A DNA stretch of 64,000 bases from an uncultured Candidatus Actinomarina sp. (GCA_902634185.1 CACPJC010000001.1:32001-96000), one strand, 5' to 3'; shown: positions 13,841 to 46,556, counted from the stretch's first letter. The notes: generated by a model not told the origin, from the letters alone. Made by a program: numbers and translations.

Positions 13841-13845
13841 GCTAG

Positions 13846-13920: not shown

Positions 13921-14015
13921 CACGTCTAATTATTGTTCCATGATAACGCTTTTATGGAAACAATAAATCAAAAAATTTATAGTTAAGTATTATGAGTTAA
14001 GTTAATCTGTAAAAA

Positions 14016-14088: not shown

Positions 14089-14099
14089 CGCGACATTTA

Positions 14100-14182: not shown

Positions 14183-14186
14183 CAAA

Positions 14187-22542: not shown

Positions 22543-24000
22543 TTATCTGTACTCTGGACAAGTTATTTGATAATCACAATTTGAGCACCAATCACCAACA
22601 TTAAATGATGGTGATAGTGAATCATTAGGATTCCAATTAGCAATTCTCTGCGCTTTATCCTCGAATTTGTTGATGATTGAATCAAACTCACTTTCTCCAA
22701 ATTTTCTTTTCTTAAGTTTTCCACCATCTTTATTTGTATATATATGAAAGACGTAGACCTCATCCTCTTTGAGTAACAATTTTGCACCTAGTGCATATAA
22801 TTCAGCCTCTGTTAGGTCATCATTGCTTTCTTGTCCTGTTTTGAGTTCAATAACAAGACCTTTTCCTTTGTACCTTCCAACAAGATCAGCCTGGCCCATA
22901 AATGTTACTGCAACTTTATCTTCTCTTAACTCCATTTTTGAATTTGAGACTATTCCATCTTTTAATATCGAAAATCCAAGACCATACTCTGATAGTTTTA
23001 TTTCTAATTCGTTTTGATCTTCAACCTCATCATCTAAGGCTTGGATGAGTTCTTCATATTTTTTGAGTATCTGAGACGCAAATTTTTCCTCTTCATCTAC
23101 AAGCAGCTTTTTTAATCTCTCAATTTCTTTATCTCCAAAGATATCTTTATTTTTTTCAAGCATCTTTTGTGAATATGAGTGAAATTTTTGTCCAAGTTCA
23201 GCTTCAAATGATTCGTTTTCAATATCTTTTGGTATTGCATATTGCGCTCTCCAAGACGTCCATCGCTCACACGTCTCAAGATTTAACAAGTTTGACTTAC
23301 TAATTAAAATTCCTCTATTATTCGACTTTGCTTCTTGTCCATCAACTACAGGATATTGACCACACCTTGATGGTCGAGAACACATATAGCAATGGAGTCC
23401 AGGAGTTGCTTGTTTTCTATTTGTTTCAAATTCTTGAATAATATTGAAATAGTTATCAATAATTTCTTTTGAATTTTCTGGTTCCTTAATCTCATCAAAG
23501 TCATCGTGAATGAGTTGAGCTGTTAGAAATGTTTCACCCTCTAACTTAGTTTCTGCCACAATAGCCCTATCGATATCTTCAATATCAGACACTCCTGCCT
23601 TAAGCTTTATGTATTCAGTGTTGTCTTCATCTTCAAGTTGATACTGAAAGGATGTGTACATACCTTTCTCTTCACCATCAATCTCTTTGATGATTTCTTG
23701 TCTGTAAAAATCTATATTGACCTGAGGTAGTGGTTTGGGAACCAAACTTCTAAATCGCTCAAAAAGTTCAGACATTATTTTTTTTTGTAATGGGTCATAA
23801 AATTGAAAATTTTCTTCTGCAACCTTAATAGCAACCTCATCATCTGCTTCATTAAGTAACCAATCAGATATTGCGTTATTTATACCGCTCCATCGATCTA
23901 AGCGAGAATTTGGTGTGAGAGTTTTTGGACCAATAGATTGATGACACTCTGAAATTTTTTTAACATCGTGTGTTTTATAGAACTTAATGCCCTGGTTCAT
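22543..24000 (-). CDS. PD-(D/E)XK nuclease, AddB/RecB/Cas4-like, apparently two tandem domains
   Basis: SKSNLLNLETC..., GQKFH, GQADLV...VIELKTG, ELYALG, C-terminal CSNCDYQITC; internal CYMCSRPSRC. Confidence 0.75.
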   Translation of the reverse strand: MNQGIKFYKTHDVKKISECHQSIGPKTLTPNSRLDRWSGINNAISDWLLNEADDEVAIKVAEENFQFYDPLQKKIMSELFERFRSLVPKPLPQVNIDFYRQEIIKEIDGEEKGMYTSFQYQLEDEDNTEYIKLKAGVSDIEDIDRAIVAETKLEGETFLTAQLIHDDFDEIKEPENSKEIIDNYFNIIQEFETNRKQATPGLHCYMCSRPSRCGQYPVVDGQEAKSNNRGILISKSNLLNLETCERWTSWRAQYAIPKDIENESFEAELGQKFHSYSQKMLEKNKDIFGDKEIERLKKLLVDEEEKFASQILKKYEELIQALDDEVEDQNELEIKLSEYGLGFSILKDGIVSNSKMELREDKVAVTFMGQADLVGRYKGKGLVIELKTGQESNDDLTEAELYALGAKLLLKEDEVYVFHIYTNKDGGKLKKRKFGESEFDSIINKFEDKAQRIANWNPNDSLSPSFNVGDWCSNCDYQITCPEYR

Positions 24001-24770: not shown

Positions 24771-27209
24771 TTACTTTAAAGTTTCTATTTCATCCGGACA
24801 GAATTTTAAAGATTTTTGATTAGGAAGAGACAAGGTAATTGAGGATTTATCAACAAGTTCTTCAAATGTGGTTTTATTTTTTATTATGCCTACGGGATTA
24901 TCTGTATTAATAATTGTTTCAAGTGGTGTATATAAAAATTTTATGAGGGCTATCTCAAAATCTGTGAAGTTTACAGAATTATTTTTTGTTACGTTTTCTG
25001 TACTCATTAATCCACTTTTGATACATGATGAATGGTGCAGCCCTAGTGAGTGGCCTAGCTCATGAATTAAAACGTGATCTCTCTCCAAACCATATAGGTC
25101 AGCATCAATCCAAATGCTTTCCTCTATCAAGTTATAAAACCCTGTATAACCAGCACATGAGCCAGTCCCCCAAGCGTCACCATATGGTCTTCTGCTCAGA
25201 CATTCTCTAAGCTCAATAGGAATTGTTATTGCTTCACTGTTTGTTGAATAACTAAAGAAATCATAACCAATAATTTCGTTTATTACTCTGACGAACTCTT
25301 TTACAATTCTCTCATCTTTATCGGTAAAATCACCATCGAAACCGTACACAACAGGACTATCTTGCTTGAAAATGTCTCTATTTACATATCCGGAGTCTCG
25401 ACTGTATCCACCTGGATCGTATGTATGAGTTGAGCCAATTATAAGATCTTCAATGCTAAATTGTTTTACTAGTTCATCTGTGACTTCGGTTATATCCTCT
25501 TTGTAGTCATCGTGAATTATTGTATTTGGAAAAAACTCTTCTCTTTCTCTATTTTCCCAGTCACCCCAAATAAAGATATCCCAGAGATTTGCCCAACTAA
25601 TTGAGATTTCTGGCCAACCGTGAGCCCATCCTCTAACAACATATGGTTGGAATGAAAACGTTAATCCGTCATCATTTATCGATACAGCATTTAGATTTCT
25701 ATAACTCCAAGGCTGAGTTTTATCATCTTCTAAAGTGGGGATTTTTCCCTCATCTACTCTAAGAATATCTTCTAGCCTATTATCGAGTAATTCAAGCCAT
25801 AGTGGGTTATAACCATCTTTTTCAAAGCCTTGTTCATTTAAAAGCTTATCGGACATAATATCTTTGAGTTCAATTTTTGTACATGTAGAAAGATCATAAT
25901 TATAAGTTTTATAGAAATAGTCACCATGATTACCCCCTGTAAAAGTATGAATTTGGAAAATTACAGATATATAATTCATCCTTTCTTCAGGAACCATTCC
26001 ATATTCATATAAATAAAAACCATCCTCGGGTGGGTTGTTATGATGACCTAGATTTTTCCCATGGACTTCAAAAGAGGATTGACTACTGACTAAATAATTA
26101 AAAACAGAGTAAAAATCTGCCCATGTTGGGTGGTCCCAGGCGTTATCTGATATATCAAATCCAACAAGACGATAGTCGCCTGTTAAGCCTGAGGCCCAGT
26201 GGTCTCCCCACTCAAGATCATCATGAAAATTAAGAGTGGTTGATCGGGCATAGTCTTCAAATACAGTATTTATCTCTTCAAAACAGGATTCATACATGGA
26301 TGCATCGTCAATTGAGTTTTCGTATAGCTCGTTCCACACATTCAGATTCTCAATATTTAATACTGGATACCTAAATGTGTTATTCCAAGTTGTATTGGAA
26401 TCATAAGTCCCAACTTCACTTAAACAAAAAACGTCAGGCGTAAGTTCCTCTTCACCCTCTTCTTTTGAATATTCGTTCCAATCATCCACATGCCACTTTA
26501 AAATCCATTCATCTTCAAAACATTCCTCTGGAGAATCAAAATGTTGTTCCCAAATTAATCCAGATGGAGTCTTATACATTGTGATGTATCCATCTTCTAC
26601 CATTGGTGATCTAATGTGATCTCTTACGTAATCTCCTTCACCACTGATATTCATATTGAAAAGATTATTTTTACATGTAAATAAAGCCTCTTCGCCCTCG
26701 ACATCTTTTGCATATATTTCAATATTCAACATGTCTTTACCCTGTAGACCCTCTGCATAGGCATTGATTACAACTTCACCGTCCAATTTGTAACCAACAC
26801 CTTGATCTAATTCCATTCTTTTTTTGAGATTAATGTCTAAATCACCTGTGCTGTCGGTGAACTTGATATCAAATTTTTTAGGTCCATTTGGGAAAGAGTA
26901 TTGAATGACAAATTCATATGATTCATATAAACCAAGATTTTCATCACAAAGATTTAAATTAATGAGTGGTTTTTGATTTTCATCAAGAATAAACTCGTTT
27001 TGCTCTGCAGCAAGATCTGATAATTCGTTTATCATTTCATCTGCAAAATCTAAATCACTTTGTAATTGATAATTCTCTTCAATTAAATCTTCTATGATTT
27101 CATTTTCAAAAAGAGCAACTTGGACAATAAAAAAAATAAATAATGTGTAAAAAATAAATAATGATTTCCAAGAAGGTGGTCTTTTTAATGCATTAATAAA
27201 ACTATTCAT
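24771..27209 (-). CDS. Membrane-anchored RsiV/DUF3298-like domain plus C-terminal metzincin (M10/matrixin-like) peptidase
   Basis: N-terminal TM and coiled coil; YISV..HTFTGGNHG...TYNYDL...IELKDI and GLTFSFQPYVV..WAHG; HELGHSLGLHH followed by a GLMS Met-turn. Confidence 0.7.
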   Translation of the reverse strand: MNSFINALKRPPSWKSLFIFYTLFIFFIVQVALFENEIIEDLIEENYQLQSDLDFADEMINELSDLAAEQNEFILDENQKPLINLNLCDENLGLYESYEFVIQYSFPNGPKKFDIKFTDSTGDLDINLKKRMELDQGVGYKLDGEVVINAYAEGLQGKDMLNIEIYAKDVEGEEALFTCKNNLFNMNISGEGDYVRDHIRSPMVEDGYITMYKTPSGLIWEQHFDSPEECFEDEWILKWHVDDWNEYSKEEGEEELTPDVFCLSEVGTYDSNTTWNNTFRYPVLNIENLNVWNELYENSIDDASMYESCFEEINTVFEDYARSTTLNFHDDLEWGDHWASGLTGDYRLVGFDISDNAWDHPTWADFYSVFNYLVSSQSSFEVHGKNLGHHNNPPEDGFYLYEYGMVPEERMNYISVIFQIHTFTGGNHGDYFYKTYNYDLSTCTKIELKDIMSDKLLNEQGFEKDGYNPLWLELLDNRLEDILRVDEGKIPTLEDDKTQPWSYRNLNAVSINDDGLTFSFQPYVVRGWAHGWPEISISWANLWDIFIWGDWENREREEFFPNTIIHDDYKEDITEVTDELVKQFSIEDLIIGSTHTYDPGGYSRDSGYVNRDIFKQDSPVVYGFDGDFTDKDERIVKEFVRVINEIIGYDFFSYSTNSEAITIPIELRECLSRRPYGDAWGTGSCAGYTGFYNLIEESIWIDADLYGLERDHVLIHELGHSLGLHHSSCIKSGLMSTENVTKNNSVNFTDFEIALIKFLYTPLETIINTDNPVGIIKNKTTFEELVDKSSITLSLPNQKSLKFCPDEIETLK

Positions 27210-27816
27210 TATTTACCCACCTAACAATCTCTTTTGCAAATTTTTGTCCACCTCTATGACTTGGTTCTATGGGGTTAGCATAATCTTCAGATGTGACAAA
27301 AATTTCTCTTAACTCAAGCACCTCTATGTTGTATTTGCTCCCGATCCTATAAATAGAGTCATTAAAAAATGAGACCATCGTTCTTGCTGATTCTGCAATA
27401 GAATCAAATTCCTCTGAACCAACTAAATCCCCTTCATATACTGTGCATAGAAGTGGAGTTGCCCTGTAGTCAGTTAGTTTCTGCACAATGGTCTCATAAT
27501 TATTATTTATCGGAAGTAACATTTGCCTTAATTGTTCAAGAACAAGGTTTGGCGAATACCTAAAATCCTGAGTCAAAAAGCTGATATTGTTAAGAAGATC
27601 ATTTCCACCAACAGACAATACTGTATGAGTATCCTCTTCAGATACATGTTTTAGCTGGCTACTTAAAACATGATCTGTGGTTGCTCCATCAAGTGCTATT
27701 TGTAAAAATTCATCATTAGAAATATGTTCTAAATGTTCCAGTACAGAGAGCTCATCAGATTCAACATAAACCTTATTGTCAATGATGGAATCGCCTAAGA
27801 GTGTAACTTTGTTCAT
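27202..27816 (-). CDS. SGNH/GDSL hydrolase
   Basis: LLGDSIIDN, SVGGND, DYANPIEPSHRGG. Confidence 0.88.
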   Translation of the reverse strand: MNKVTLLGDSIIDNKVYVESDELSVLEHLEHISNDEFLQIALDGATTDHVLSSQLKHVSEEDTHTVLSVGGNDLLNNISFLTQDFRYSPNLVLEQLRQMLLPINNNYETIVQKLTDYRATPLLCTVYEGDLVGSEEFDSIAESARTMVSFFNDSIYRIGSKYNIEVLELREIFVTSEDYANPIEPSHRGGQKFAKEIVRWVNNE

Positions 27817-28046
27817 ATTCCTCTATGAACACGACCAATATGATAACCATCACAATATCTGCATTTGTAGTCTTTTATGAGTTCCTTAGCTCTAAAAGAA
27901 GCGAGTCTTGCAGATTGTAATGCGAGTAAAGGATTGTCGTATTTAGTTTTTCTTTTACAACTCCAACATTTATCACATAAACAATATGAATTTGAATACT
28001 CTGACCAGCAAATAGGTTGTTTTAGTGTGATACGTTGCCGGGGCAT
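27813..28046 (-). CDS. Small Cys-rich Zn-finger protein
   Basis: CKRKTKY...A...YKCRYCDGYHI; AAGGA RBS; 4-nt overlap with the SGNH gene. Confidence 0.65.
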   Translation of the reverse strand: MPRQRITLKQPICWSEYSNSYCLCDKCWSCKRKTKYDNPLLALQSARLASFRAKELIKDYKCRYCDGYHIGRVHRGI

Positions 28047-28055
28047 TTATTCCTT

Positions 28056-28076
28056 TTTTAGTAACTTTCACTATAA
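28056..28076. promoter_or_regulatory. NrtR-type operator box 1
   Basis: TTTTAGTAACTTTCACTATAA, a 21-bp pseudo-palindrome with a GT-N7-AC core. Confidence 0.8.
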
Positions 28077-28086
28077 ATATAGCGAA

Positions 28087-28107
28087 TAATAGTGAAAAAC
28101 ACAATTA
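28087..28107. promoter_or_regulatory. NrtR-type operator box 2
   Basis: TAATAGTGAAAAACACAATTA; GT-N7-AC core, 31 bp from box 1. Confidence 0.75.
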
Positions 28108-28118
28108 ATAAATTATAT

Positions 28119-28139
28119 TTTTAGTACTTTACACTATTA
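28119..28139. promoter_or_regulatory. NrtR-type operator box 3, overlapping the -35 of the nrtR promoter
   Basis: TTTTAGTACTTTACACTATTA; contains TTTACA (28128-28133), 18 nt upstream of TATACT (28152-28157). Confidence 0.8.
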
Positions 28140-28163
28140 AGATAATTTTTCTATACTTTGCAT

Positions 28164-28982
28164 ATGAGTAAAGGTTATCCCCTATCACTGAATGCAGTCA
28201 ACGTAGTCTGTTTTAAGATCGACTGGATTGAGATGGATTTAAAAGTTCTCTTAATCAAAAGAAGTATCTCCCCGCATAAAAACAAATGGTCTCTTCCTGG
28301 TGGTTTTGTGAATGAAAATGAAAGTATTGAAGAGGCAGCACATCGTAAATTTGTTGAGGAGACTGGCATTGCACCTGCATATATCAATCAGTTCAGAACG
28401 TATAGTGATGTTTCTCGTGATAAAAGACCAGTAAAAGGTCAAAAGGTTCGTGTTGTTACTACTGCATTTAATGCAATTTACACTAGTACTGACGATCCAG
28501 TACTTTCTGATGAAAGTTCAGATTATCGATGGTTTAAGATACCTAGAAGATTTATTGATAGATCAATTCCAAAATTGGCTTTTGATCATTACAAGATACT
28601 GACTGATGCAGCTAACCGACTAAGAGTTGATTTAGAATACAGTGGTCTTGCAACCAGATTTCTACCTCAACACTTTACATTAGGACAAATACAAGATGTC
28701 TATGAAATTATTTGGGAAGTTGAATTAGATCCAGCAAACTTTAGAGATAAATTAACAAATGTTGAGGGATGGATAAAAGAAACTAAATCTGGTCCAAAAG
28801 ACGCTGAACCTCGCAGAGGAAAACCTCCAACATGGTATAAAGAGCATGACATTCCAAAATTTGATAGGATGATATCTAATCCAAATGGAACTGTAATCAG
28901 AGAAAAAGAGTCTGAATATCAAAAAAACTTAGACAATTTAACTGGAGAAATCAAAATATCTGACATAAAATCGAAAGAGTAA
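28164..28982 (+). CDS. nrtR: NrtR-family Nudix-wHTH transcriptional regulator
   Basis: WSLPGGFV..Nudix box (RKFVEETG), QFRTYSDVSRDKR, LAFDH, FLPQHFTL..IQDVYE..LDPANFR wHTH. Start ATG 28164 lies 6 nt after TATACT. Confidence 0.9.
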   Translation: MSKGYPLSLNAVNVVCFKIDWIEMDLKVLLIKRSISPHKNKWSLPGGFVNENESIEEAAHRKFVEETGIAPAYINQFRTYSDVSRDKRPVKGQKVRVVTTAFNAIYTSTDDPVLSDESSDYRWFKIPRRFIDRSIPKLAFDHYKILTDAANRLRVDLEYSGLATRFLPQHFTLGQIQDVYEIIWEVELDPANFRDKLTNVEGWIKETKSGPKDAEPRRGKPPTWYKEHDIPKFDRMISNPNGTVIREKESEYQKNLDNLTGEIKISDIKSKE

Positions 28983-29221
28983 TGGAGATTATCCTTATTG
29001 CTTTAGTGATAACAATATATTTAATTAATTTTTCAAAAAATATAACTCCAGATACGAAGATAAAAAATACAAAAATAAAACAAAGACCTAAACCAAGGAC
29101 TTATAGACCAGGTCAATTAAAAAAGAAGCTCATAATAAGTCAAGAAAGCAAAGTTGAACCAATTACTTGGGAATCATTTGTTTTTTTGAATACTGTGGGT
29201 CCGAAAATCGTAAAGAAGTAA
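28982..29221 (+). CDS. Small hypothetical protein with N-terminal hydrophobic anchor and basic tail
   Basis: Overlaps the nrtR stop (TAATG); MEIILIALVITIYLINF followed by a Lys/Arg-rich region. Confidence 0.55.
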   Translation: MEIILIALVITIYLINFSKNITPDTKIKNTKIKQRPKPRTYRPGQLKKKLIISQESKVEPITWESFVFLNTVGPKIVKK

Positions 29222-29231
29222 GGTGTTGTAA

Positions 29232-31751
29232 ATGACTGAAGAAGAGAAATTGACTAACCAAAAAATTAGAGAGTTTAGAAAGCGAATCTGTGATAGAGAG
29301 AATATACGGTTAATGAAGTTGTTAAATAATATAGATATTAAGAATATTTCTACAAAACCTTGGCCTACATCAGAAGAGGATTTGATATCAAAGATAGAAA
29401 ATTTAGAAATTATAAAACAGTTTTGGAATGAATTTCTACAAGAACTATCAGAAATATATGGTTATCAAATAAGTGGATCAAGCGACATCATACAAAACTT
29501 TGTTGAGGACTTAGATATTGATCAGGCTTCAGAATCAGAGGAAAAAATAAATTTAGAACTTGAAGGTTCTCCTGAGTTTTTAGAAGAAGATCTAGAGGAT
29601 ATTGATTATTCAGGAGAGATAGGTTTTGTTAATGATGAAACTATTACAGATGAATATGAATTTGAACCTATTAAGAAAATTTATAGCGGCAACATTGATA
29701 TCGACACAAAAAACGCAAGATATTTTAATATTTTTAGTTCTATTTTTTTCGTAAAAATATGGTGGAAACTTTGGAAGGAAAAAGCTTTCTTTAATGAATT
29801 TAGTAAAGACTACCCGCTCACAAAACAGCAAAAAGTTTCTGTATTGTCTAATGAAAATAGAAACTTAGTTGTAGCTGGTGCTGGCACAGGCAAAACACAT
29901 CTAATGATCGCCAAAGCTGGTTATCTTTTGAAGAAAATGGGGATAAAAGAACAGGATATTTTGCTGTTGGCTTTTAATAACGATGCAGCTGAACAGCTGA
30001 GAAATCGCGGTAAAGAGAGGTTGGATGCTAATTTACATGCATATACATTCCACTCATATGGAAACAAGCTAAGCAAAAGTTTAAGCCCAAATAAAAATTT
30101 AAACCCTGATGAAGAAGATCAGAAAATTAAAAAACCTAAGTGGATACAAACAACTCTTGATACTTTACCTCTAGATCATCCAATAATGAAAAAAGTTCTC
30201 CGTTATTTTTCTGAGTATTTAGTACCACCACCCTCACCAAATATGGACTACAAATCTCTGAATGAATATCAATCGTATGTTAAAAATATAGAGAAACGTT
30301 CTCTTTCTGGAGATAAAGTAAAAAGCTATGGTGAATTGTTAATTGCTAACTTTTTAACAATAAATGGTATTGACTTCGAATATGAGGCAAAATTTAATTC
30401 CGAGAACATTAGATATACTTACAGGCCCGATTTCACGATATACAAAGACAGGGAAAGATCTGAAGAAATAGTTGTAGAGTTTTTCGGGATTGATAGAGAT
30501 GGAAATGTTAAACCAGGGATTTTGCCTGATAGATATAAGAATCTTACAACAAAAAAAATAGAGCTCCATAAAAATGAAAAAACCGACTTTATCGATTTGT
30601 ACTACTACGAACAGCAAGAGGGGTTATTATTGAAAAAACTTGAAACGGAACTTAAAAATAGAGGAGTTACTTTCAAGAAATTGGACGATGAAGAGTTGTT
30701 AAAGCGTTTTAACGATAGTCAATATTTCACCATCTTTTCCCAGCTGTGTAGTGAGTTTCTTGAGCAATACAAATCTAACCAACACAACATCAAAGATTTA
30801 TTGATTAAGGCTGAGGAAGATGAAAGAAGTATCGCATTTCTACATATCTTTGAATGGATTAAAAATCAATACAATGCCTATTTGGATTCAAATGATCTTA
30901 AAGACTTTTCTGACATGATAAACGATGGTACAAAAGCTTTGTTGGAAGCTAAGTATCAAACTGAGTGGAAATGGATCATTGTTGATGAGTTTCAAGATAT
31001 CTCTGCAGGAAGACTTAGGTTTATTAATGCGATATTGGAACAAAATCCTGATGCAAAACTTATGGTAGTTGGAGATGATTGGCAGTCTATATATAGATTT
31101 GCAGGTAGTGATATTAATTTAGTAACTAAATTCGAAAAATATTTTGGAAGATCTGTTGAATTTAAATTAACAAAATCTTTCAGGTTTAACAGTCAGATAA
31201 AAGATTTAAGTCAAAAGTTTATCCAAGCAAATCCAATGCAGAAAAGAAAAAATATAACTGTTGATCGTACAGTTGAACCATATAGGAATTGGGTTCACTG
31301 GTCAGACCAAGGTCTTATTCCAGAAAAGAGAAGTAAGAAAATTGTAGAGATTGTTAAGAAAATGAAAGAAGAATTAAAACTTCAAGGAGAGTTGCTTATT
31401 TTGGCAAGATACAATCATAATCTACCTAAAGGTCCTCAATTAAAAGAAATTGGTGAGGTATGGGGTGAGAACTTTAGATATATGACTGTACATAGAGCTA
31501 AGGGACAAGAGGCTGATTATGTTTTGTTGGTTGATTTGATTTCAGGGGTTTTTGGTTTTCCAGCAATACAATCTGAAGATCCTATTTTAAATCTAGTATT
31601 AGCTTCTGCAGGGCCTGAAGATTTATTAATGTATGGAGAAGAAAGAAGACTTCTCTATGTTGCAATGACAAGAGCCCGAGAAGAATTTCATGTTATATCA
31701 GATGTCCCACAACCATCTATATTTGTAAACGAGATTTTAGAGTATGAGTAA
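29232..31751 (+). CDS. UvrD/helicase IV (HelD)-like SF1A helicase with an inserted nuclease-like domain
   Basis: VAGAGTGKT, TFHS, VDEFQD, VGDDWQSIYRFAG, TVHRAKGQEAD, EERRLLYVAMTRA; insert KSYGELLIANFL..FEYE..YRPDF..VEFFG. Confidence 0.88.
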   Translation: MTEEEKLTNQKIREFRKRICDRENIRLMKLLNNIDIKNISTKPWPTSEEDLISKIENLEIIKQFWNEFLQELSEIYGYQISGSSDIIQNFVEDLDIDQASESEEKINLELEGSPEFLEEDLEDIDYSGEIGFVNDETITDEYEFEPIKKIYSGNIDIDTKNARYFNIFSSIFFVKIWWKLWKEKAFFNEFSKDYPLTKQQKVSVLSNENRNLVVAGAGTGKTHLMIAKAGYLLKKMGIKEQDILLLAFNNDAAEQLRNRGKERLDANLHAYTFHSYGNKLSKSLSPNKNLNPDEEDQKIKKPKWIQTTLDTLPLDHPIMKKVLRYFSEYLVPPPSPNMDYKSLNEYQSYVKNIEKRSLSGDKVKSYGELLIANFLTINGIDFEYEAKFNSENIRYTYRPDFTIYKDRERSEEIVVEFFGIDRDGNVKPGILPDRYKNLTTKKIELHKNEKTDFIDLYYYEQQEGLLLKKLETELKNRGVTFKKLDDEELLKRFNDSQYFTIFSQLCSEFLEQYKSNQHNIKDLLIKAEEDERSIAFLHIFEWIKNQYNAYLDSNDLKDFSDMINDGTKALLEAKYQTEWKWIIVDEFQDISAGRLRFINAILEQNPDAKLMVVGDDWQSIYRFAGSDINLVTKFEKYFGRSVEFKLTKSFRFNSQIKDLSQKFIQANPMQKRKNITVDRTVEPYRNWVHWSDQGLIPEKRSKKIVEIVKKMKEELKLQGELLILARYNHNLPKGPQLKEIGEVWGENFRYMTVHRAKGQEADYVLLVDLISGVFGFPAIQSEDPILNLVLASAGPEDLLMYGEERRLLYVAMTRAREEFHVISDVPQPSIFVNEILEYE

Positions 31752-32253
31752 CCGATTAGTTTCAGTTTGTCCATGTTGTTCAGAAAATGAACCAAAAAAA
31801 TGTCCTTCTTGTCATGATGGAAATATTAAAAAAGTTGATTTTGTTGAAAACATGTTTTTTTATGGTTGTTCAAATTATCCATTTTGTACTCATACTTACA
31901 AAGCATGTAACTATTGCAAAAAAGCTTTAAGTATTATTGACAGTAAAAAAAGTCTGTATTTATGTAGCGATGAAACCTGTAAAGGTAGCGTTGAAAAATG
32001 TAAAGTTGGTACAGGTTATTTGAGAAGGCTTGTAGGTCCAAATGGACCATTTTGGGGTTGCACTGATAATAGAGAAACTGATTGTAGTTCTATGAAACCA
32101 TACACTGATGAAAATGCAGAAACATGTCATCAATGCTCTGAAGGAAAAATTATAAAAAGTTGGAACAGAAGACAAAATAGACCTTTTTGGTCATGCAGTG
32201 AGTACTCAAATGGATGTAGATGGACTGAACCGTATGGAAACTCTTCTTCATAG
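31744..32253 (+). CDS. Stand-alone topoisomerase-I-type C4 Zn-ribbon repeat protein
   Basis: CPSC..FYGCSNYPFC; GPNGPFWGC; CHQC..FWSCSEYSNGCRWT. Confidence 0.8.
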   Translation: MSNRLVSVCPCCSENEPKKCPSCHDGNIKKVDFVENMFFYGCSNYPFCTHTYKACNYCKKALSIIDSKKSLYLCSDETCKGSVEKCKVGTGYLRRLVGPNGPFWGCTDNRETDCSSMKPYTDENAETCHQCSEGKIIKSWNRRQNRPFWSCSEYSNGCRWTEPYGNSSS

Positions 32254-32271
32254 CTATTAATATCTAAAATA

Positions 32272-33711
32272 ATGGCTAATTATTCAAAAGATCAGATAAA
32301 CGCAATTGAGAATTTTCAAGCATTCTTAGATCATGTTGCAAACGTCATGATTATTAAAGGAACTGCTGGTTCAGGAAAAACAACCCTTATTAAACAATTT
32401 TCCAAAATTTGCAAAGAACAGGGTTGGAGATTTATCCCTTTAGGTGTTTGGGGAAGGAGCTCAAGTGCTATTACCCAAATAACAGGGCTTCCTGCTGTCA
32501 CTGTGGCCAAATATATTAATGTTAATAAAAGAATAGAAAGCGGTGAAGAGGTCAAGCCTAATGGTGAGCCTTATGAAGACTTTAATGATTGGTTTAGAGC
32601 TCTTCATTTACGTCTTTTTTCAAGAGCAGTAGAAGCAATTCAAAAATTTTTTTCCAACGAAGAGGAGGAGTTGAAAGGAGATTTGCTAATTATAGATGAG
32701 GCTAGTTGCATTAATGATAGGGAGCTAGCAAATCTAACTGATCTCGCAATCAATAACTCAATGGATGACATAAAAATAGTATTTATAGGGGACGATTGTC
32801 AATTACCTCCTGTGGCACAGAGTGGAAACAAGAGCAATGGACTTGTCAAAGATTATATGGAGTCTGAGTTGGGACTTGTGTGTTATCCCGAAGTTGAATT
32901 AATTGAATCTCACAGAGCAGCCGAAGGTCCATTGTTTGAGTTAGGTCAAAAACTGAGACCTATGGCAAAATCAAATGGATCTGGTGAAGAGGCCAGAAGA
33001 AGTATTACAGGCAGCATAAATAATGAAGAAATCCTGGGTTATGGCGAAGATGCAATTAGAAAAGTTTGCAAAGAAGTATTTCAGGGCAGTCCAGATGATG
33101 TCATATTTATTACTGATAGCAATATGAGTTGTTTGGAGTGGGGAAGAAGACTCCGAAAAGAATATTTTTCTGATTCCTTTAGTGCCGTTGTTGTTGGAGA
33201 AAGGCTTCGATCTGATTCAAACGGATTAAAAGATGTGATATTAAAGGGTGACGAATTTGAAGTTTTAGAGATTTTAAATTCTGATGTTGGTGATTTTTAT
33301 ATCCTTAAAGTAAGAGAGGTGTCTAGAAGGCAAGAGTACTCAGGATGGAACATATTACAAAGATTAGATCAATTGTTTGATGTCTTTACACCCAATAGAG
33401 AATTTAATATTGCCGTTTATAAGCCAGTCTTTAAAGATGATGATGAAATGCTATCTAGGGGTTTGTGGAGAAAAGTTGAGGAAAAATGGGATGAGCTTGG
33501 TTGGGAGAATGAAGATGAAGGAAGAGTTGTTCAAGATATAACATGGTGCCGGTATTCATACACTTCAACTGTTTACTCTGCTCAGGGAGGCGAGTGGGAT
33601 ACAGTTGTTCTTAATGTTTCTCCACCAAGTCGTTCAACAAGTGATATTGCTCGATACTGGTATACAGCAGCTACTAGAGCAAAAAAACAATTACTAGTTA
33701 TGTTAGGTTAA
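32272..33711 (+). CDS. RecD/Dda-like SF1B helicase (AAA_30 + UvrD_C_2 type), divergent
   Basis: GTAGSGKTT, IIDEAS, IGDDCQLPPV, STVYSAQGGEW, WYTAATRAKKQL. Confidence 0.82.
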   Translation: MANYSKDQINAIENFQAFLDHVANVMIIKGTAGSGKTTLIKQFSKICKEQGWRFIPLGVWGRSSSAITQITGLPAVTVAKYINVNKRIESGEEVKPNGEPYEDFNDWFRALHLRLFSRAVEAIQKFFSNEEEELKGDLLIIDEASCINDRELANLTDLAINNSMDDIKIVFIGDDCQLPPVAQSGNKSNGLVKDYMESELGLVCYPEVELIESHRAAEGPLFELGQKLRPMAKSNGSGEEARRSITGSINNEEILGYGEDAIRKVCKEVFQGSPDDVIFITDSNMSCLEWGRRLRKEYFSDSFSAVVVGERLRSDSNGLKDVILKGDEFEVLEILNSDVGDFYILKVREVSRRQEYSGWNILQRLDQLFDVFTPNREFNIAVYKPVFKDDDEMLSRGLWRKVEEKWDELGWENEDEGRVVQDITWCRYSYTSTVYSAQGGEWDTVVLNVSPPSRSTSDIARYWYTAATRAKKQLLVMLG

Positions 33712-33793
33712 ACAGTTTCTCCAATCTTGAAGTTAAATGATAAAGGTTCAAGTTCAACATGCATACAGAAACCTACCTATTTAAAATAAGTTT

Positions 33794-35353
33794 ATGCCTA
33801 GAGAATCAAGTACAGACTTCAAACAGACTCTTTGGAAAACAGCAGACTCACTTCGTGCGCAAATGGATGCAGCCGAATACAAACACATTGTTCTAGGGCT
33901 TATATTCCTTAAATATATTTCAGACTCCTTTACAGAACAAAAAGAGAGAATTAAAGCATTAGTTACTGATCCAAAATCTGATTTCTTTATTTCAGAAAAT
34001 CTCTCAGATATCAATGAAAAAGACTTAGAAGACAGAGACTACTACACACAAGATAATGTATTTTGGGTACCAGAATCTGCAAGATGGGAGACACTAAGAG
34101 CACAGGGGAAACAATCAGATATTGGCGCGATTATTGATCGTGCAATGAGCGATATTGAGACAGAGAACAAATCACTGAAAGGAAAATTAGACAAACGTTT
34201 CGGAAGAACAGAGCTTGGTGCTGGTAAATTAGGAGAACTTATAGACCTTATCTCCACTATTGGATTTACAGAAGAACAAAATGCTGGAGATATGTTAGGT
34301 GAAGTCTATGAATACTTCCTAGGGCAGTTTGCTTCAGCTGAAGGTAAAAAAGGTGGACAGTTCTATACCCCACGTCATGTAGTAAAAACCTTAGTTGCTG
34401 TGCTCTCTCCACATAAAGGCAGAGTTTATGATCCATGTTGTGGATCAGGTGGAATGTTTATACAAAGCGAAGACTTTGTTACATCCCATGGTGGTAAACG
34501 AGATGATATCTCAATTTATGGACAAGAAAGCAATCCTACTACATGGAGACTTGCTGCAATGAACCTAGCTATAAGAGGTCTAGCTGCAGATTTAGGTAAA
34601 GAGCCAGGTGATACCTTTGGAAATGATCAACATCCAGATACAAAGTTTGATTATGTAATTGCAAACCCACCATTCAATATTTCTGACTGGGGTGGTGAAA
34701 AGTATGACGATGATCCTCGCTGGGTATATGGTAGACCTCCAGTTGGTAATGCGAACTATGCATGGCTACAACATATGTTATCGAAACTTGGTCCTGGTGG
34801 CCAAGCAGGAGTAGTGCTTGCTAATGGTTCTATGAGCTCAAATACTTCTGGAGAGGGTGAGATTAGAAAAGCTATGATTGAAGATGATGTTGTCGAAGTC
34901 ATGATTGCGCTTCCAGGACAATTATTCTTAAATACACAAATTCCAGTTTGTTTATGGTTTTTAACAAATGATAAAACTAAAAATGGAAGAAACAGAAAAA
35001 ACGAGACGCTTTTTATTGATGCTAGGAATCTTGGAACTATGGAAACAAGGGTACTCAAAGTTTTAACTGATGAAGATATAAGAAAAGTTCAAGATACCGT
35101 TTCTTCATGGAGAAGTGGAAAAGAATATAATGATGTTGAAGGGTATTGCATCAGTTCTACCACTGAAGAAATTAAAAATAAAGATTATATTTTAACTCCT
35201 GGAAGGTATGTTGGTTTTGCAAACAAAGAAGAAGATGGTGCTTCTTTTGATAATAAAATTAAATATTTATTGAATACTTTAAAAGAACAACAGGAAGAAT
35301 CGAAAAATTTAGACAAAAAAATAAATTTAATTAACAATCTGTTTGATGAGTAA
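33794..35353 (+). CDS. hsdM: Type I restriction-modification methyltransferase subunit (m6A)
   Basis: LWKTADSLR, GQFYTP, DPCCGSGG, ANPPFN. Confidence 0.97.
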   Translation: MPRESSTDFKQTLWKTADSLRAQMDAAEYKHIVLGLIFLKYISDSFTEQKERIKALVTDPKSDFFISENLSDINEKDLEDRDYYTQDNVFWVPESARWETLRAQGKQSDIGAIIDRAMSDIETENKSLKGKLDKRFGRTELGAGKLGELIDLISTIGFTEEQNAGDMLGEVYEYFLGQFASAEGKKGGQFYTPRHVVKTLVAVLSPHKGRVYDPCCGSGGMFIQSEDFVTSHGGKRDDISIYGQESNPTTWRLAAMNLAIRGLAADLGKEPGDTFGNDQHPDTKFDYVIANPPFNISDWGGEKYDDDPRWVYGRPPVGNANYAWLQHMLSKLGPGGQAGVVLANGSMSSNTSGEGEIRKAMIEDDVVEVMIALPGQLFLNTQIPVCLWFLTNDKTKNGRNRKNETLFIDARNLGTMETRVLKVLTDEDIRKVQDTVSSWRSGKEYNDVEGYCISSTTEEIKNKDYILTPGRYVGFANKEEDGASFDNKIKYLLNTLKEQQEESKNLDKKINLINNLFDE

Positions 35354-36575
35354 AAAAAATTTCAGGCTTTCAGAGATTATCAGTCTAATCGGAGGAGGAA
35401 CTCCCAAAAGGTCAATGAAAGAATATTGGAATGGGGATATACCTTGGTTAGTAGTTAGTGACTTTAATAATGACTCGAGATATGTTGAAAAGTCAAGTGA
35501 GAAAATTACACAGCTTGGCCTTGATAACAGTAGTACAAAATTACTCAAACCTGGAATGCTTATTATTTCAGCTAGAGGGACAGTTGGAAAGTTGGCTCAA
35601 TTAAATTCAGAGATGGCATTTAGTCAGTCTTGTTATGGAATCGACGCAAAGACAGAATTTACTAATAATGACTATCTATATTATCTCTTAAAAGTGAAAA
35701 TTAAAGAATTGCAGTCACTTGCTCATGGTTCAATTTTTGACACAATTATAAGATCGACTTTTGATAATATTTTTGTTGATATCCCCTCACATAAAGAACA
35801 AGAGCAGGTCGTAAGTATTTTAAGCAATCTTGATAAAAAAATAAAAAATAATGAAGAACAAAACAAAACTCTTGAACAAATTGCAAAAACACTCTTCAAA
35901 TCTTGGTTTATAGATTTTGATCCAGTAAGAGCAAAAGTAGAAGGAAGGCCTACAGGACTGTCAAAGGAAATAAGTGATCTATTTCCTTCTGAGTTGATTG
36001 ATTCAGAACTTGGGGAGGTTCCAAAAGGGTGGCATGCTACGGATCTGAAATCCGTAGCAAAAATTTCTGGTGGTAAGGTACTTGATAAGACAGAATTTGA
36101 CGAGTTAGGAGAGGTTCCGGTCTATGGAGGAAATGGAATTATGGGATGGACTAACAAATCAAACATCTCTGATTTTGCTATTTTATTCGGTCGTGTAGGA
36201 GCAAACTGTGGAAGCATTCACTGGGTCTATGAAACTGCTTGGGTAGGAAACAATGCCTCGTCTATTGTGCCGTTGAACCATGGTGAGTTTGTTTTACAAA
36301 CGCTTCTTATGAAGGATTTCGAGAATTTGCGATCTGGATCTGCTCAACCATTTATTTCAAATAGCGCTCTAGGTTCAATTCGCATCTTAATGCCGAGTGA
36401 TGATATTTTGGACCATTATTGTCGATTAATTCATAGTATTCGTCTTCGTCAGGTTTTAATTTCGAATGAAAACAAACTGCTATCTAAGTTAAGAGATACT
36501 CTGATGCCTAAACTCATTTCGGGTGAGTTGAAAATCCCAGATGCAGAGAGTCTTATTCAAGAGGCAAATATTTAA
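35346..36575 (+). CDS. hsdS: Type I RM specificity subunit
   Basis: Two TRDs, GGGTP, EQEQVVSILSNLDKKI, LFKSWFIDF..ELGEVPKGW, LRDTLMPKLISGE. Confidence 0.95.
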   Translation: MSKKNFRLSEIISLIGGGTPKRSMKEYWNGDIPWLVVSDFNNDSRYVEKSSEKITQLGLDNSSTKLLKPGMLIISARGTVGKLAQLNSEMAFSQSCYGIDAKTEFTNNDYLYYLLKVKIKELQSLAHGSIFDTIIRSTFDNIFVDIPSHKEQEQVVSILSNLDKKIKNNEEQNKTLEQIAKTLFKSWFIDFDPVRAKVEGRPTGLSKEISDLFPSELIDSELGEVPKGWHATDLKSVAKISGGKVLDKTEFDELGEVPVYGGNGIMGWTNKSNISDFAILFGRVGANCGSIHWVYETAWVGNNASSIVPLNHGEFVLQTLLMKDFENLRSGSAQPFISNSALGSIRILMPSDDILDHYCRLIHSIRLRQVLISNENKLLSKLRDTLMPKLISGELKIPDAESLIQEANI

Positions 36576-39500
36576 TGAATATAATCACTGAAGAGCAACT
36601 TGAACAATTATGCATTGATTGGTTTGTTGAACTTGGATATAAATACAAAGATGGTCATGATATTGCACCAGAAAGTAATAATCCTGAAAGAGATGATTTT
36701 AGAAAAGTTGTTCTTGAAGACAGACTGAAATCTTCTTTAATTAGAATAAATCCCGACATTCCGATAGAGACAATTAATAACGCTTCTTCTGAAATACTTA
36801 ACCCAAACCTACCTGGACTTCTGCAATCTAATCGTGAGATGCATAAATTGATGACAAAAGGATTAAAAATTACTTTTACTGAAGATAATCAAGAAGTTGG
36901 CAAGCAATTAAAACTTATTGATTATGACAATGTAGAAAATAATGATTGGTTAATTGTAAATCAGTTTGAAGTGCAGGGAGATCAGAGACTTCGAATTCCA
37001 GACGTTATAGTTTTTGTAAATGGACTTCCTCTAGGAGTAATTGAACTTAAAAACCCTGCAGATGAAAATACAGATATCTGGGCTGCATACAATCAACTTC
37101 AAACTTATAAAGATAATATTCCTGATCTATTTAATACCAATGGTGTACTGGTAATCTCTGATGGTATTCAAGCAAGAATGGGGTCATTGACAGCAAATCA
37201 AGAACGTTTTATGAGGTGGAGAACTATTGATGGTGAGACAGTTGATCCACTAGGAGAATATCAGGATCTAGAAACTTTAATAAAAGGTCTTTTTAATAAA
37301 GAAATATTTTTAAATTACATAAAATATTTTTGCATTTTTGAAGATGATAAATCAATTATTAAAAAAATTGCAGGATACCACCAGTATCATGCATCACAAA
37401 AAGCACTAGAAAATGTAGTAAAGGCATCAAAAGAAGACGGAGATAAAAAAGGTGGTGTCGTCTGGCATACACAGGGTGCTGGAAAAAGCTTAGAGATGAC
37501 CTGTCTTGCTGGACAACTACTTTCAGATATTCGACTTGGAAACCCAACCATAGTGATGGTTACAGATAGACAAGATTTAGATGGCCAACTCTTTGGTGTG
37601 TTTAATGATGCAGGAGATTTACTAGGTGAATCACCAAAACAAGCAAACTCCATCAAGGAATTAAAAGAACTGCTGTCAGATAGACCATCTGGTGGAATTA
37701 TTTTTACTACTATCCAGAAATTTAGATCAGAAAAAGATGAGGAGAGATTCTCTGTATTGACTGATAGACACAATGTTGTTGTGATGTGTGATGAAGCACA
37801 TAGAACGCAGTATGGTTTCAAAGGTGTAATTGACCAGAAAACAGGACAAATGAAATATGGACTAGCTCGAGCATTGAGAGATGCTTTACCAAACGCAACC
37901 TTTATAGCATTTACAGGAACCCCTATTTCTCAAGAAGACAGAGATACACAAGCAGTATTTGGAGAATATGTAGATGTCTATGATATTCAACAAGCAGTAG
38001 AGGATGGGGCAACTGTTCCAATTTATTATGAATCACGTCTTGCAAAAATTAAGCTTAATGAATCCAAAGCAACACTTATTGACGAAGAAGTAGAAGATAT
38101 TTTCGAAGACGGAATTGAAGATGATGAACAACAAGAGAAAGCAAAATCAAGATGGTCTCAGATAGAGGCTTTAGTTGGAGCTCAACCTAGATTAGAAGAA
38201 GTTTCAAAAGATCTAATTGAACATTATGAAACGCGATCAAAAACCCAACCAGGAAAAGCACTGGTTGTTGGCATGAGTAGAGATATCTGTGCAAGACTTT
38301 ATGATGAAATAATTAAGATAAGACCAGAGTGGCACAATGATGACAACAATAAAGGCTCTATAAAAGTAGTAATGACAGCATCAGCTGCAGATGAAAAACA
38401 TTTACAACCACACCATACTTCAAAACAGCAAAAAAAAGATTTAGAGAAAAGATTTAAAGACCCATCAGATGAATTAAAAATTGTAATTGTTAGAGATATG
38501 TGGTTAACAGGTTTTGATGCACCATGTTTAACAACCATGTATGTTGATAAGCCTATGAAGGGAGCTAACTTAGCCCAAGCTATAGCAAGAGTGAACAGAG
38601 TTTTTGCTGATAAACCAGGGGGCTTGATTGTTGATTATATAGGTATTGCACCTCAATTAAAAGAAGCTTTGGCAACATACAGTGCTGCAAAAGGTAAAGG
38701 TAGACCAACTGTAGATACAAGCGAAGCATTGAGAATATTAGAAGAAAAACTCATGGTGGCTAGAGACTTACTTCATCCAGTTGATTGGTCAGATTTTAAA
38801 AATAATGCTTTAAAACTTCTGCCAGAATGTATTGATCATGTTTTAGAACAAGAGGATGGAAGAAAAAGATACTGTGATACAGTACTAACCATTACAAAAT
38901 CATTTGCACTTTGTGGTGCTACTGATGAGGCAATGAAATTTTCAGAAGAAGTAGCATTTCATCAAGCTATTACGGCTCCCCTTATCAAGACTGAAAAGAA
39001 AGGTGGAAGAGGAGAATACAAGGATATAGATTTTGAGTTAAAACAATTAATTTCAGAATCCCTTGTTGTAGAAGATGTTGCAGATATTTTTAAAATTGCT
39101 GGTCTAGAAAAACTTGATATATCAATTCTTTCTGAGGAGTTTTTGAAAGAGGTACAAAAAATGCCTTATAAAGATTTAGCGGTAGAACTTTTACAAAGAC
39201 TTATTAATGATGAAGTTAAATCAAAGTTTAGAACCAACTTAGTTAAGCAAAGGAAATTTAGCGATCTGCTGACAAACTCATTAATTAAATATAACAATCG
39301 GTCTATTGAAGCTGCTCAGGTAATAGAAGAGCTAGTAGCTATGGCAAACGAATTTAAAAAAGACTTAGAGAAATCAAAAGAGCTAAATCTAAGTTCAGCG
39401 GAAAATGCTTTCTACGATGCACTCTCTAATAACAAATCTGCAGAGGAACTCATGGGAGAAGAAGTGCTTGTAAAAATTGCAGTAGAGATTGCAGAGAAGC

Positions 39501-39673
39501 TAAGAAATAATGTAACCGTAGATTGGTCAGTAAGGGAATCTGTCCGTGCAAGATTAAGACTTTTAGTAAAAAATCTATTGAGAAAATATAAATACCCGCC
39601 AGATAGCCAAGATGAAGCGGTTGAATTAGTTTTATCTCAAGCAGAAACTATTTCTAAAGAACTAGTTTCTTAA
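36575..39673 (+). CDS. hsdR: Type I RM restriction subunit
   Basis: RIPDVIVFVNGLPLGVIELK, WHTQGAGKS, DEAHRTQYG, DMWLTGFD, QAIARVNR. Confidence 0.97.
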   Translation: MNIITEEQLEQLCIDWFVELGYKYKDGHDIAPESNNPERDDFRKVVLEDRLKSSLIRINPDIPIETINNASSEILNPNLPGLLQSNREMHKLMTKGLKITFTEDNQEVGKQLKLIDYDNVENNDWLIVNQFEVQGDQRLRIPDVIVFVNGLPLGVIELKNPADENTDIWAAYNQLQTYKDNIPDLFNTNGVLVISDGIQARMGSLTANQERFMRWRTIDGETVDPLGEYQDLETLIKGLFNKEIFLNYIKYFCIFEDDKSIIKKIAGYHQYHASQKALENVVKASKEDGDKKGGVVWHTQGAGKSLEMTCLAGQLLSDIRLGNPTIVMVTDRQDLDGQLFGVFNDAGDLLGESPKQANSIKELKELLSDRPSGGIIFTTIQKFRSEKDEERFSVLTDRHNVVVMCDEAHRTQYGFKGVIDQKTGQMKYGLARALRDALPNATFIAFTGTPISQEDRDTQAVFGEYVDVYDIQQAVEDGATVPIYYESRLAKIKLNESKATLIDEEVEDIFEDGIEDDEQQEKAKSRWSQIEALVGAQPRLEEVSKDLIEHYETRSKTQPGKALVVGMSRDICARLYDEIIKIRPEWHNDDNNKGSIKVVMTASAADEKHLQPHHTSKQQKKDLEKRFKDPSDELKIVIVRDMWLTGFDAPCLTTMYVDKPMKGANLAQAIARVNRVFADKPGGLIVDYIGIAPQLKEALATYSAAKGKGRPTVDTSEALRILEEKLMVARDLLHPVDWSDFKNNALKLLPECIDHVLEQEDGRKRYCDTVLTITKSFALCGATDEAMKFSEEVAFHQAITAPLIKTEKKGGRGEYKDIDFELKQLISESLVVEDVADIFKIAGLEKLDISILSEEFLKEVQKMPYKDLAVELLQRLINDEVKSKFRTNLVKQRKFSDLLTNSLIKYNNRSIEAAQVIEELVAMANEFKKDLEKSKELNLSSAENAFYDALSNNKSAEELMGEEVLVKIAVEIAEKLRNNVTVDWSVRESVRARLRLLVKNLLRKYKYPPDSQDEAVELVLSQAETISKELVS

Positions 39674-39768
39674 TTTTTGCATATCCGCGGTAATAAAATG
39701 TTCTTTATAACTGCCAAAACTGCCAAAAGTAAATTAGGTCGTCTGAAAACAACCTGTACAATATATAT

Positions 39769-46479: not shown

Positions 46480-46556
46480 TGGTAGCGGGGGTAGGATTTG
46501 AACCTACGACCTCTGGGTTATGAGCCCAGCGAGCTACCAGACTGCTCCACCCCGCG
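46480..46556 (-). tRNA. tRNA-fMet(CAT), initiator
   Basis: CGCGGGGTGGAGCAGTCTGGTAGCTCGCTGGGCT-CAT-AACCCAG...; C1-A72 mismatch, GGG/CCC anticodon stem, encoded CCA. Confidence 0.96.

Follow-up and report, generated by a model that had tools for sequence, protein, structure and literature searches.

A 64,000-nucleotide stretch of DNA from an uncultured Candidatus Actinomarina sp. (GCA_902634185.1 CACPJC010000001.1:32001-96000), which we call the window, carries at positions 28,164 to 33,711 an NrtR-type regulator gene, nrtR, followed by a block of genes for two helicases and two small proteins. By comparing this locus with sister genomes and marine metagenome contigs, we found that at least eight alternative cargos occur behind nrtR, of which the helicase block is one, and that the locus is a flexible-island hotspot, that is, a variable defence island. 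We consider it fairly probable that the block is the cargo of a defence slot headed by NrtR. The helicase module probably functions in anti-phage defence, and ADP-ribose is put forward, tentatively, as a possible inducer of the slot.

Alternative cargos behind nrtR

The original prediction of five co-oriented, tightly packed genes was confirmed on the plus strand, with nrtR (28164..28982; 272 amino acids [aa]) followed by p79 (28982..29221; 79 aa) and the genes for an 839-aa helicase (29232..31751), a 169-aa Zn-ribbon protein (31744..32253), and a 479-aa RecD-like helicase (32272..33711), the last referred to as recD. The successive spacings are -1, +10, -8, and +18 nucleotides (nt), as measured between the longest open reading frames (ORFs), so that the overlaps may be overstated.

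The regulators of sister genomes are 66 to 89% identical to the window NrtR, and each is followed by a different cargo. In genome G022, a DarT gene (PF14487, 1.9e-13) overlaps the nrtR stop codon and is accompanied by a NADAR antitoxin gene (2.4e-78), and G051 carries DarG (PADLOC, 5.9e-54) together with DarT (1.5e-24). A BglII-like endonuclease with a methylase occupies the slot in G055, and a 227-aa protein followed by an Mrr-helicase enzyme (type IIG model, 8.5e-90) with methylases occupies it in G070. In G003, a Schlafen AlbA_2 protein comes first, and behind it lie an Hhe-like helicase-nuclease (1.1e-116) and a type I restriction-modification (RM) system; G065 has a 657-aa RecD-like helicase, followed on the other strand by the DISARM genes DrmA, DrmB, and DrmE; and G007 and G016 have unknown proteins of 276 and 279 aa, respectively, followed by RM genes. 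G062 shows no co-directional gene at this position, where a PDC-M16A-like helicase (2.8e-57) is encoded convergently. The first cargo genes are mutually unrelated. Counting the window and the divergent metagenome locus L100, the first gene runs in the direction of nrtR in 10 of the 11 intact loci for which downstream sequence is available, and 9 of these 10 genes, taken from their longest-ORF starts, overlap nrtR or lie within 9 nt of it.

In G008 and G009, the PD-(D/E)XK gene (window 22543-24000) and the GMC oxidoreductase gene (39769-41610) are adjacent, whereas about 15.7 kb separate them in the window; the same spot holds a different type I RM system in G010 and a C5 methylase in G013. G070 and G062 share the hotspot of the window, with left-flank DNA about 95% identical, and homology to them in blastn stops at 28951 and 28933, respectively, inside the nrtR 3' end and 30 to 50 nt upstream of its stop codon. 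Homology to G070 returns at 39703. The swapped block thus spans 28952..39702 on the plus strand and comprises the nrtR 3' tip, the helicase module, and hsdM-hsdS-hsdR (33794..39673, plus strand), a complete type I RM system that starts 82 nt after the RecD-like gene. Contigs from RNA libraries of two studies contain parts of both helicase genes at 90 to 99% likeness and part from the window at 28952 and at 33718, positions that are also the borders of the genome comparisons; nrtR (largely) and p79 are uncovered by these contigs, which are uninformative about them. The window's assembly has 974 kb in 16 contigs, is 83% complete, and has a G+C content of about 33%. No tRNA gene borders the island: a tRNA-Met gene lies at 46480-46556, and six tRNA genes at 13607-14183 (His, Arg, Gly, and Pro on the minus strand, Lys and Leu on the plus strand) are flanked by genes for trigger factor and a thioesterase.

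Within its own clade, the helicase module keeps its composition. The order nrtR, p79, helicase, Zn-ribbon protein, RecD-like helicase recurs in 10 of 10 marine metagenome contigs, as far as each of them reaches, which argues that the arrangement is not due to chance. In L100, which represents a divergent lineage, cys77 (a small gene divergent from nrtR, described below) is 45% identical to its window counterpart, NrtR 73%, the helicase 55%, the Zn-ribbon protein 37%, and the RecD-like protein 44%, and a 229-aa protein with two Top1 Zn-ribbons replaces p79.

Further genes in the sister slots are worth recording. PDC-M16A-type RecD-like helicases are found at L206:8445-10499 (G062; 684 aa, with a C-terminal HRDC domain) and L209:5898-7871 (G065; 657 aa), so that this helicase type recurs in the slot in three unrelated forms. 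Candidate defence genes also include a HATPase_c_3 protein, a 242-aa protein, and a PLD-SNF2 helicase (PADLOC PLD_Helicase, 3.7e-56) at L202:12225-17917 (G022), as well as DUF6339/PDC-M33-like gene sets at L200:12534-16955 (G007) and L206:12131-16574 (G062).

The regulator, its candidate operators, and the divergent operon

Judged by its domains, the regulator is a bona fide member of the NrtR family. It matches NUDIX (PF00293, 2.8e-18) and the winged-helix domain NrtR_WHD (PF21906, 5.8e-11), both above the gathering scores, and aligns over its full length, including both domains, with SoNrtR (3gz5, 2.4e-21) and BtAraR (5bs6, 1.4e-21). Its score against the NCBIfam NtrR equivalog, 108 bits, is far below the cut-off of 400. 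The longest ORF begins with TTG at 28158, and the ATG at 28164 is invariant in seven loci.

The regulator has R-K-F-V-E-E-T-G as its Nudix box. Among 32 aligned homologues, the glutamate of the initial RE is replaced by Lys or Ile in 25 of 25 close homologues, and the canonical REUXEEXG is kept in all 7 distant ones; in the close marine clade (64 to 92% identity), the next acidic position of the box varies too. Such an impaired signature suggests a sensor rather than a hydrolase. Beyond the winged helix, proteins of the marine clade extend into a highly conserved C-terminal tail of about 50 aa (residues ~210-272, window 28790-28982), which is not present in homologues of the SoNrtR/BtAraR kind, and the cargo recombination junction falls within the last ~10 codons of this tail.

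Close NrtR homologues form about 95 clusters in marine data, some with hundreds of members, and are far commoner than the helicases. Among 62 family genomes, nrtR is present in 12 (E<=1e-60), one copy being a pseudogene. This copy belongs to a decayed cassette in G008 (L204:1455-2610), where an nrtR pseudogene with nine stop codons lies beside an intact cys77-like ORF. A 44-residue nrtR fragment was also seen at G011:C9:33625-33756.

The region between nrtR and cys77 contains three candidate operators with the GT-N7-AC core. According to Rodionov et al. (PMC2330246), a 21-bp palindrome with this core is common to most NrtR motifs. Box 1 (28059..28073, core 28061-28071) and box 3 (28122..28136, core 28124-28134) are TAGT-N7-ACTA palindromes, and box 2 (28090..28104, core 28092-28102) is half-palindromic. 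Across seven loci (the window, L100, G003, G007, G016, G022, and the G008 remnant), the intergenic region has a mean identity of 79%, and all three cores are invariant, in box 2 at G28092, T28093, A28101, and C28102. TAGT-N7-ACTA occurs at 14 sites in the 974-kb genome, two of which lie 63 bp apart in this region; the remaining 12 are all in ORFs or non-promoter positions, 10 of them inside long ORFs. Box 3 overlaps the -35 hexamer of a promoter-like site, TTTACA-18 nt-TATACT (28128..28157, plus strand), which matches at 10 of 12 positions, is the best plus-strand site of this kind in 27700-40000, and has a -10 hexamer largely conserved in the seven loci. As the site ends 6 nt before the nrtR ATG, the mRNA is predicted to be near-leaderless. 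This layout would imply that nrtR is autoregulated. No plus-strand terminator-like site was found in 28164-33711, nor was any strong promoter-like site between nrtR and recD, and the co-orientation and tight spacing of the cargos suggest that they are read from the nrtR promoter.

The prediction of a Nudix-winged helix-turn-helix regulator with a degenerate box is therefore borne out by both family domains and the 25 close homologues. Likewise, none of the 56 window ORFs scanned matched a family for the synthesis or salvage of nicotinamide adenine dinucleotide (NAD), as had been noted. The idea of a single operon under this regulator fared less uniformly: the packed genes, the lack of a terminator-like site, and the conserved GT-N7-AC operators speak for it, but the genes behind nrtR are no fixed system, being one of at least eight cargos.

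Divergent from nrtR, on the minus strand, lies cys77 (27813..28046), which encodes a 77-aa Cys-rich protein with CxxC pairs and has box 1 only 13 nt from its start codon. It is the most constant neighbor of nrtR, being found with it in L100, G003, G007, G008, G016, G022, G051, G055, G062, G065, and G070. No Pfam, PADLOC, or PHROG family matched it, and its look-alikes in the ESM Atlas (0.90-0.91), which we note as a lead only, are small hypothetical proteins, mostly viral. The operon continues on the same strand with a GDSL/SGNH hydrolase-like protein of 204 aa (27202..27816; Lipase_GDSL, 8.2e-7), found beside nrtR in nine sister-genome loci at 51 to 98% identity, and ends with an 812-aa M10-like metallopeptidase (24771..27209; Peptidase_M10, 7.4e-7). 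The latter is 97 to 98% identical in G070 and G062 and has relatives of about 490 aa in seven other nrtR loci. A conserved protein of about 470 aa, matching no known family, is encoded between cys77 and the GDSL gene in seven nrtR loci (L200:6525-7973, L201:6738-8126, L202:6660-8123, L207:5772-7208, L208:5476-6879, L209:3345-4754, and L100:3-935). The window, G070, and G062 lack this protein and have the M10-like protein at 812 rather than about 490 aa. Since the ~470-aa protein and the length of the M10-like protein go together, two types of nrtR cassette can be distinguished.

The helicase module

The 839-aa protein is a superfamily 1A (SF1A; UvrD/Rep-type) helicase resembling DNA helicase IV, with an HRDC-like N terminus and intact Walker A and DEFQD motifs; G218, G220, K221, T222, and D585-D589 are invariant among the aligned homologues. 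Its UvrD-helicase match (PF00580, 2.7e-40) is split by an insert, with residues 196-638 corresponding to model positions 1-270. The best curated match is NCBIfam DNA helicase IV (5.5e-100; 336 bits, below the equivalog cut-off of 543), and some family members carry Helicase_IV_N. The family is large: matches amount to at least 438 clusters in the database, and a species-genome collection contains at least 596 matched stretches that encode a relative.

The insert (30129..30731, plus strand; helicase residues ~300-500) has a restriction-endonuclease-like fold of the Vsr/T7 endonuclease I kind. Its profile matches phage T7 endonuclease I in the PDB at 4.1e-5, and its AlphaFold2 model, with a predicted local distance difference test score (pLDDT) of 85 and a predicted template modeling score (pTM) of 0.85, is most similar to the catalytic domain of I-Bth0305I (3r3p; Z 8.5, root mean square deviation 2.5, 97 residues). 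Vsr (1cw0, Z 7.3) comes next, then Bax1, TnsA, VRR_NUC, and Hjc, most of the top rows having the same fold. A Foldseek search of the PDB with the model returned nothing at E<=0.001, the best match being 7.2e-3. The insert also matches the C terminus of PADLOC PDC-S68 (6.7e-9) and a PHROG family labelled 'homing endonuclease' (4.5e-4). Residues S365, E368, Y384, E385, Y397, P399, and E416 are invariant in 31 homologues, and D400 is nearly so. The nuclease-like insert claimed in the original prediction is in this way supported, as a fold, by profile, model, and structure comparison.

The Zn-ribbon protein has four Cys4 units and matches Zn_ribbon_Top1 at 1.2e-6, its 28.6 bits falling short of the gathering score of 32. 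It had been read as a separate topoisomerase-type Zn-ribbon gene, a reading that we do not uphold. Among the ORFs of 160 loci fetched around helicase homologues (80 from genomes and 80 from viral contigs, with helicase identities of 21 to 40%), it matches 52, and 51 of these are the helicase ORF itself. Because the homologues elsewhere are fused, the gene is a split-off C-terminal domain of the helicase. The protein aligns with the fused helicase tails and has an extra fourth Cys4 unit, and most family members at 35 to 40% identity contain Zn_ribbon_Top1 within the same protein.

The RecD-like protein is a Dda/RecD-like SF1B helicase (AAA_30, 2.3e-20; UvrD_C_2, 5.8e-11). It matches a PHROG Dda-like helicase family over residues 2-476 (1.6e-35) and RecD2 at 1.3e-22 (79.7 bits, below the equivalog cut-off of 500). 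The PADLOC PDC-M16A match (8.3e-42) covers residues 3-335 only, and the profiles, of 690 to 930 positions, are partly covered. Its clade is tiny: a profile search of 1.84 billion representatives yielded 10 members at E<=1e-52, four of them full length, with the next match beyond the clade at 1e-39 and 123 at E<=1e-30. One relative, 89% identical, is named from a metagenome-assembled genome (MAG) of another phylum, and viral contigs gave no close relative. Paired structure prediction of the Zn-ribbon protein and the RecD-like helicase scored 0.00, which is no verdict for or against binding.

p79, the first cargo gene, encodes a protein with an N-terminal hydrophobic helix (mean Kyte-Doolittle value 2.36 over the first 17 residues), a basic middle, and no family match. 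Its counterpart in five related contigs (among L093-L101) has 84 aa, is about 60% identical, against 95% for the helicase, and carries a C-terminal Cys cluster. The 84-aa versions overlap the helicase start codon, and the window p79 has a different C terminus and a 10-nt gap.

A possible further pairing of a Nudix protein with this helicase family was found in a prophage-like viral contig (L137:6902-10349). There, the gene for a stand-alone 147-aa Nudix protein with a canonical REUXEEXG box, which matches the Nudix domain of the window NrtR at 3.7e-20, overlaps the start of a gene for a 1014-aa helicase-IV-like protein with a fused Zn-ribbon; a large ORF resembling, by eye, a phage terminase lies a few kilobases away. 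We regard this as a single further hint of a Nudix-helicase link, which would represent an independent pairing.

Competing explanations, known systems, and a model

The immune role of the helicase block has good support by association, since the slot is otherwise filled with recognised defence systems. A bolder reading, which we hold to be less likely than not, is that NrtR acts as a general alarm switch in this marine genus with genomes of about 1 Mb, that any defence cargo recombined into its 3' end comes under one signal of NAD breakdown, and that the helicase/Zn-ribbon/RecD-like block is a new inducible helicase-nuclease immune effector. The link between regulator, defence, and ADP-ribose is strengthened by the same regulator preceding two ADP-ribosylating DarT systems. 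These two cargos make or remove DNA ADP-ribose adducts, which fits the best-known ligand of the NrtR family. In section 3.8 of Iyer et al. 2022 (PMC9503650), a Nudix-helix-turn-helix repressor was proposed to sense ADP-ribose and turn on an immune operon, and the DarT cargos fit that earlier prediction of ADP-ribose-linked conflict systems under such control.

Several findings weigh against a defence-slot cargo under NrtR control. With respect to the ligand, the regulator is equally close to the arabinose sensor BtAraR and to SoNrtR, and PMC4666351 lists ADP-ribose, NAD, and arabinose as effectors of NrtR family members. When the residues listed there are transferred from SoNrtR through our alignment, R41 and the ribose-contacting Arg and His are kept, but N43 is changed to Ile, K76 to Glu, and R98 to Lys. 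With respect to the gene set, the RecD-like clade profile matched nothing at E<=0.001 among 15,690 ORFs around the 160 distant helicase homologues (one chance-level match, E 0.16, appeared at E<=10), and NrtR-like proteins occur in 2 of these loci. The set is thus clade specific: the gene order behind NrtR recurs in the metagenome contigs but is not kept around the distant helicases. Nor is the nuclease activity of the insert certain: the position of K67, the lysine in the catalytic set (E, D, E, and K) of T7 endonuclease I, is Phe throughout the helicase family, with a nearly invariant K364 near it. The structural Z scores (8.5 at most) fall in the middling range of the tool. PADLOC gave only generic GajB/RTasHel and candidate-family matches for the module. 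The case for cotranscription is qualified by the longest-ORF starts, by G062 with no co-directional cargo, and by the 63-nt gap in G003; the RNA-library contigs are short, and neither transcription as such nor a single transcript can be read from them.

The constancy of the cys77-GDSL-M10 operon, the regulator's steady partner, points to another explanation, in which this operon could be the real target and nrtR a mere recombination anchor. NrtR would then regulate itself and the divergent cys77-(X)-GDSL-M10 genes, nrtR would be only a conserved flank of the island hotspot, and the cargo would be expressed on its own. We judge this unlikely, yet several observations accord with it: the divergent side is constant in nine sister-genome loci where the downstream side varies, the junction lies in the nrtR 3' end, box 1 is close to the cys77 start codon, and G062 does without a co-directional cargo. 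It accounts less well for the co-directional first gene in 10 of 11 loci, overlapping or within 9 nt in 9 of them, for the stretch from nrtR to recD being free of terminator-like and strong promoter-like sites, and for two cargos being ADP-ribose enzymes, in keeping with the family's known ligand.

Two further explanations concern the helicase block itself. The genes might serve DNA repair, recombination, or mobile-element maintenance, in the manner of Escherichia coli helicase IV or RecD2, rather than immunity. The helicase IV match at 5.5e-100, the very wide spread of the family, the scarcity of restriction genes around helicase homologues (hsdR-like genes in 5 of 80 loci, hsdM-like genes in 3 of 80), and the resemblance of the insert to the junction-resolving or repair nucleases T7 endonuclease I, Vsr, and Hjc would all suit such a role. 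We nevertheless think it quite improbable, as the module was found in 1 of the 62 family genomes, the window's own (RecD-like protein at E<=1e-20, insert at E<=1e-5; many of these species genomes are incomplete), the slot otherwise holds RM, DarTG, Hhe-like, and DISARM-adjacent genes, and the block adjoins three different restriction systems in three contexts. The fast evolution of the Zn-ribbon protein, 37% identical where NrtR is 73% identical, speaks against repair as well, as does the 89%-identical RecD-like protein named from the MAG of another phylum, which suggests horizontal transfer. That the helicases are accessory subunits of the adjacent type I system, forming one extended RM machine, is suggested by their lying on the same strand as hsdMSR, 82 nt from hsdM. 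This we hold to be very improbable: contigs with helicase genes 95 to 97% identical to those of the window lead to GmrSD (L095) or to an EcoEI-type type I system on the opposite strand (L096), unrelated genes follow the block in L102 and L100, and the contigs from RNA libraries part from the window 7 nt beyond the stop codon of recD. We accordingly rejected hsdMSR as part of the module.

No named system in PADLOC or the other libraries matched the set, in agreement with the original prediction of an undescribed system, and, as far as the open-access literature searched shows, the gene combination has not been described before. Its elements are known in kind: defence genes headed by a repressor that senses a ligand, and a helicase-nuclease module. 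Like SoNrtR, which also has R-K at this point of its degenerate Nudix box, the regulator combines two domains with GT-N7-AC operators and an autoregulatory layout; unlike members of that family, it has no NAD or pentose genes in its regulon, carries the ~50-aa tail, and heads variable defence cargo. The ADP-ribosylglycohydrolase (ARG)-centred systems predicted in PMC9503650 share the Nudix-helix-turn-helix regulator and variable add-ons such as restriction-fold nucleases, helicases, Macro, and NADAR. They differ in that the constant partner here is cys77-GDSL-M10 and the cargos are whole independent defence systems, and no family match to an ADP-ribosylglycohydrolase, phosphatase, or chaperone core was found in the window or nine sister loci.

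The two helicases would be expected to differ in polarity, SF1A and SF1B enzymes normally being opposite in this respect, as RecB and RecD are. A RecBCD-like pairing of the two helicases can be inferred by analogy at most: RecBCD/AddAB likewise join an SF1A helicase, an SF1B helicase, and a restriction-fold nuclease domain, but theirs is C terminal, whereas the nuclease-like domain here is inserted within the SF1A motor. No gene for a RecC- or AddB-like scaffold was found at the locus, where the scores of the RecB, RecD, and AddA models are far below the cut-offs. The match to E. coli DNA helicase IV (HelD) covers the motor and C-terminal regions, and the window helicase differs from it in the ~200-aa nuclease-fold insert and the Zn-ribbons, split off in this clade. 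The single-protein defences Hhe, Nhi, and Hna and the PADLOC candidates PDC-M16 and PDC-S68 resemble the module in being SF1 helicases joined to Vsr/restriction-fold domains in defence islands. No Hhe match is among the listed PADLOC matches of the window proteins (for the helicase, the best 25 of 42), and the sole listed Nhi match (E 3.8e-4) covers no more than 30 residues around the P-loop of the RecD-like protein. Two named systems were considered and rejected: Gabija, as the GajB matches are generic (4.3e-33 for the helicase, among its best 25 of 42) and PADLOC gave no match to GajA, the OLD-family nuclease of that system, in the 11 proteins scanned, and the DRT-associated helicase system (RTasHel), for which there are generic helicase matches only. 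In open-access full text, we found no occurrence of the term PDC-M16, no paper that connects DarTG, RM, or helicase cargos with regulators of the NrtR type (the mentions of Nudix in PMC11543638 are unrelated to an NrtR-DarTG link), and nothing on the helicase-IV/Zn-ribbon family in defence islands.

As the best explanation of the locus, we propose the following model. A mobile cargo module (28952-33718; p79, helicase, Zn-ribbon, and RecD-like genes) would have plugged into a slot that starts at the nrtR 3' end. NrtR dimers would repress both the nrtR-cargo operon and the divergent cys77 operon until a ligand of the Nudix domain releases the repressor and cargo expression rises. The ligand would most likely be ADP-ribose or a related NAD-derived nucleotide, arising from NADase immunity, phage ADP-ribosyltransferases, or the action of DarG/NADAR. 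More speculatively, the two helicases, the Zn-ribbons, and the junction-nuclease-like domain may act jointly on the ends of phage or other foreign DNA or on branched replication intermediates.

With its small repressor and an operator region of 130 bp, the locus offers a pair that lends itself to direct testing, along with a natural series of cargo swaps, and it brings to light an uncharacterised helicase family of at least 596 matched stretches with a junction-nuclease-like insert and Zn-ribbons. Should the regulator be only a flank, the locus would still be instructive as a clear-cut case of a defence-island hotspot whose recombination junction is defined. If, on the other hand, NrtR couples a NAD-derived signal to whichever gene stands behind it, this would constitute a simple transcriptional layer of bacterial immunity, connecting unrelated effectors with conflicts that involve NADases and ADP-ribosylation. 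The ability of marine bacteria with streamlined genomes to carry toxic systems such as DarT would then find an explanation as well, a minimal genome keeping its costly or toxic immunity silent until infection.

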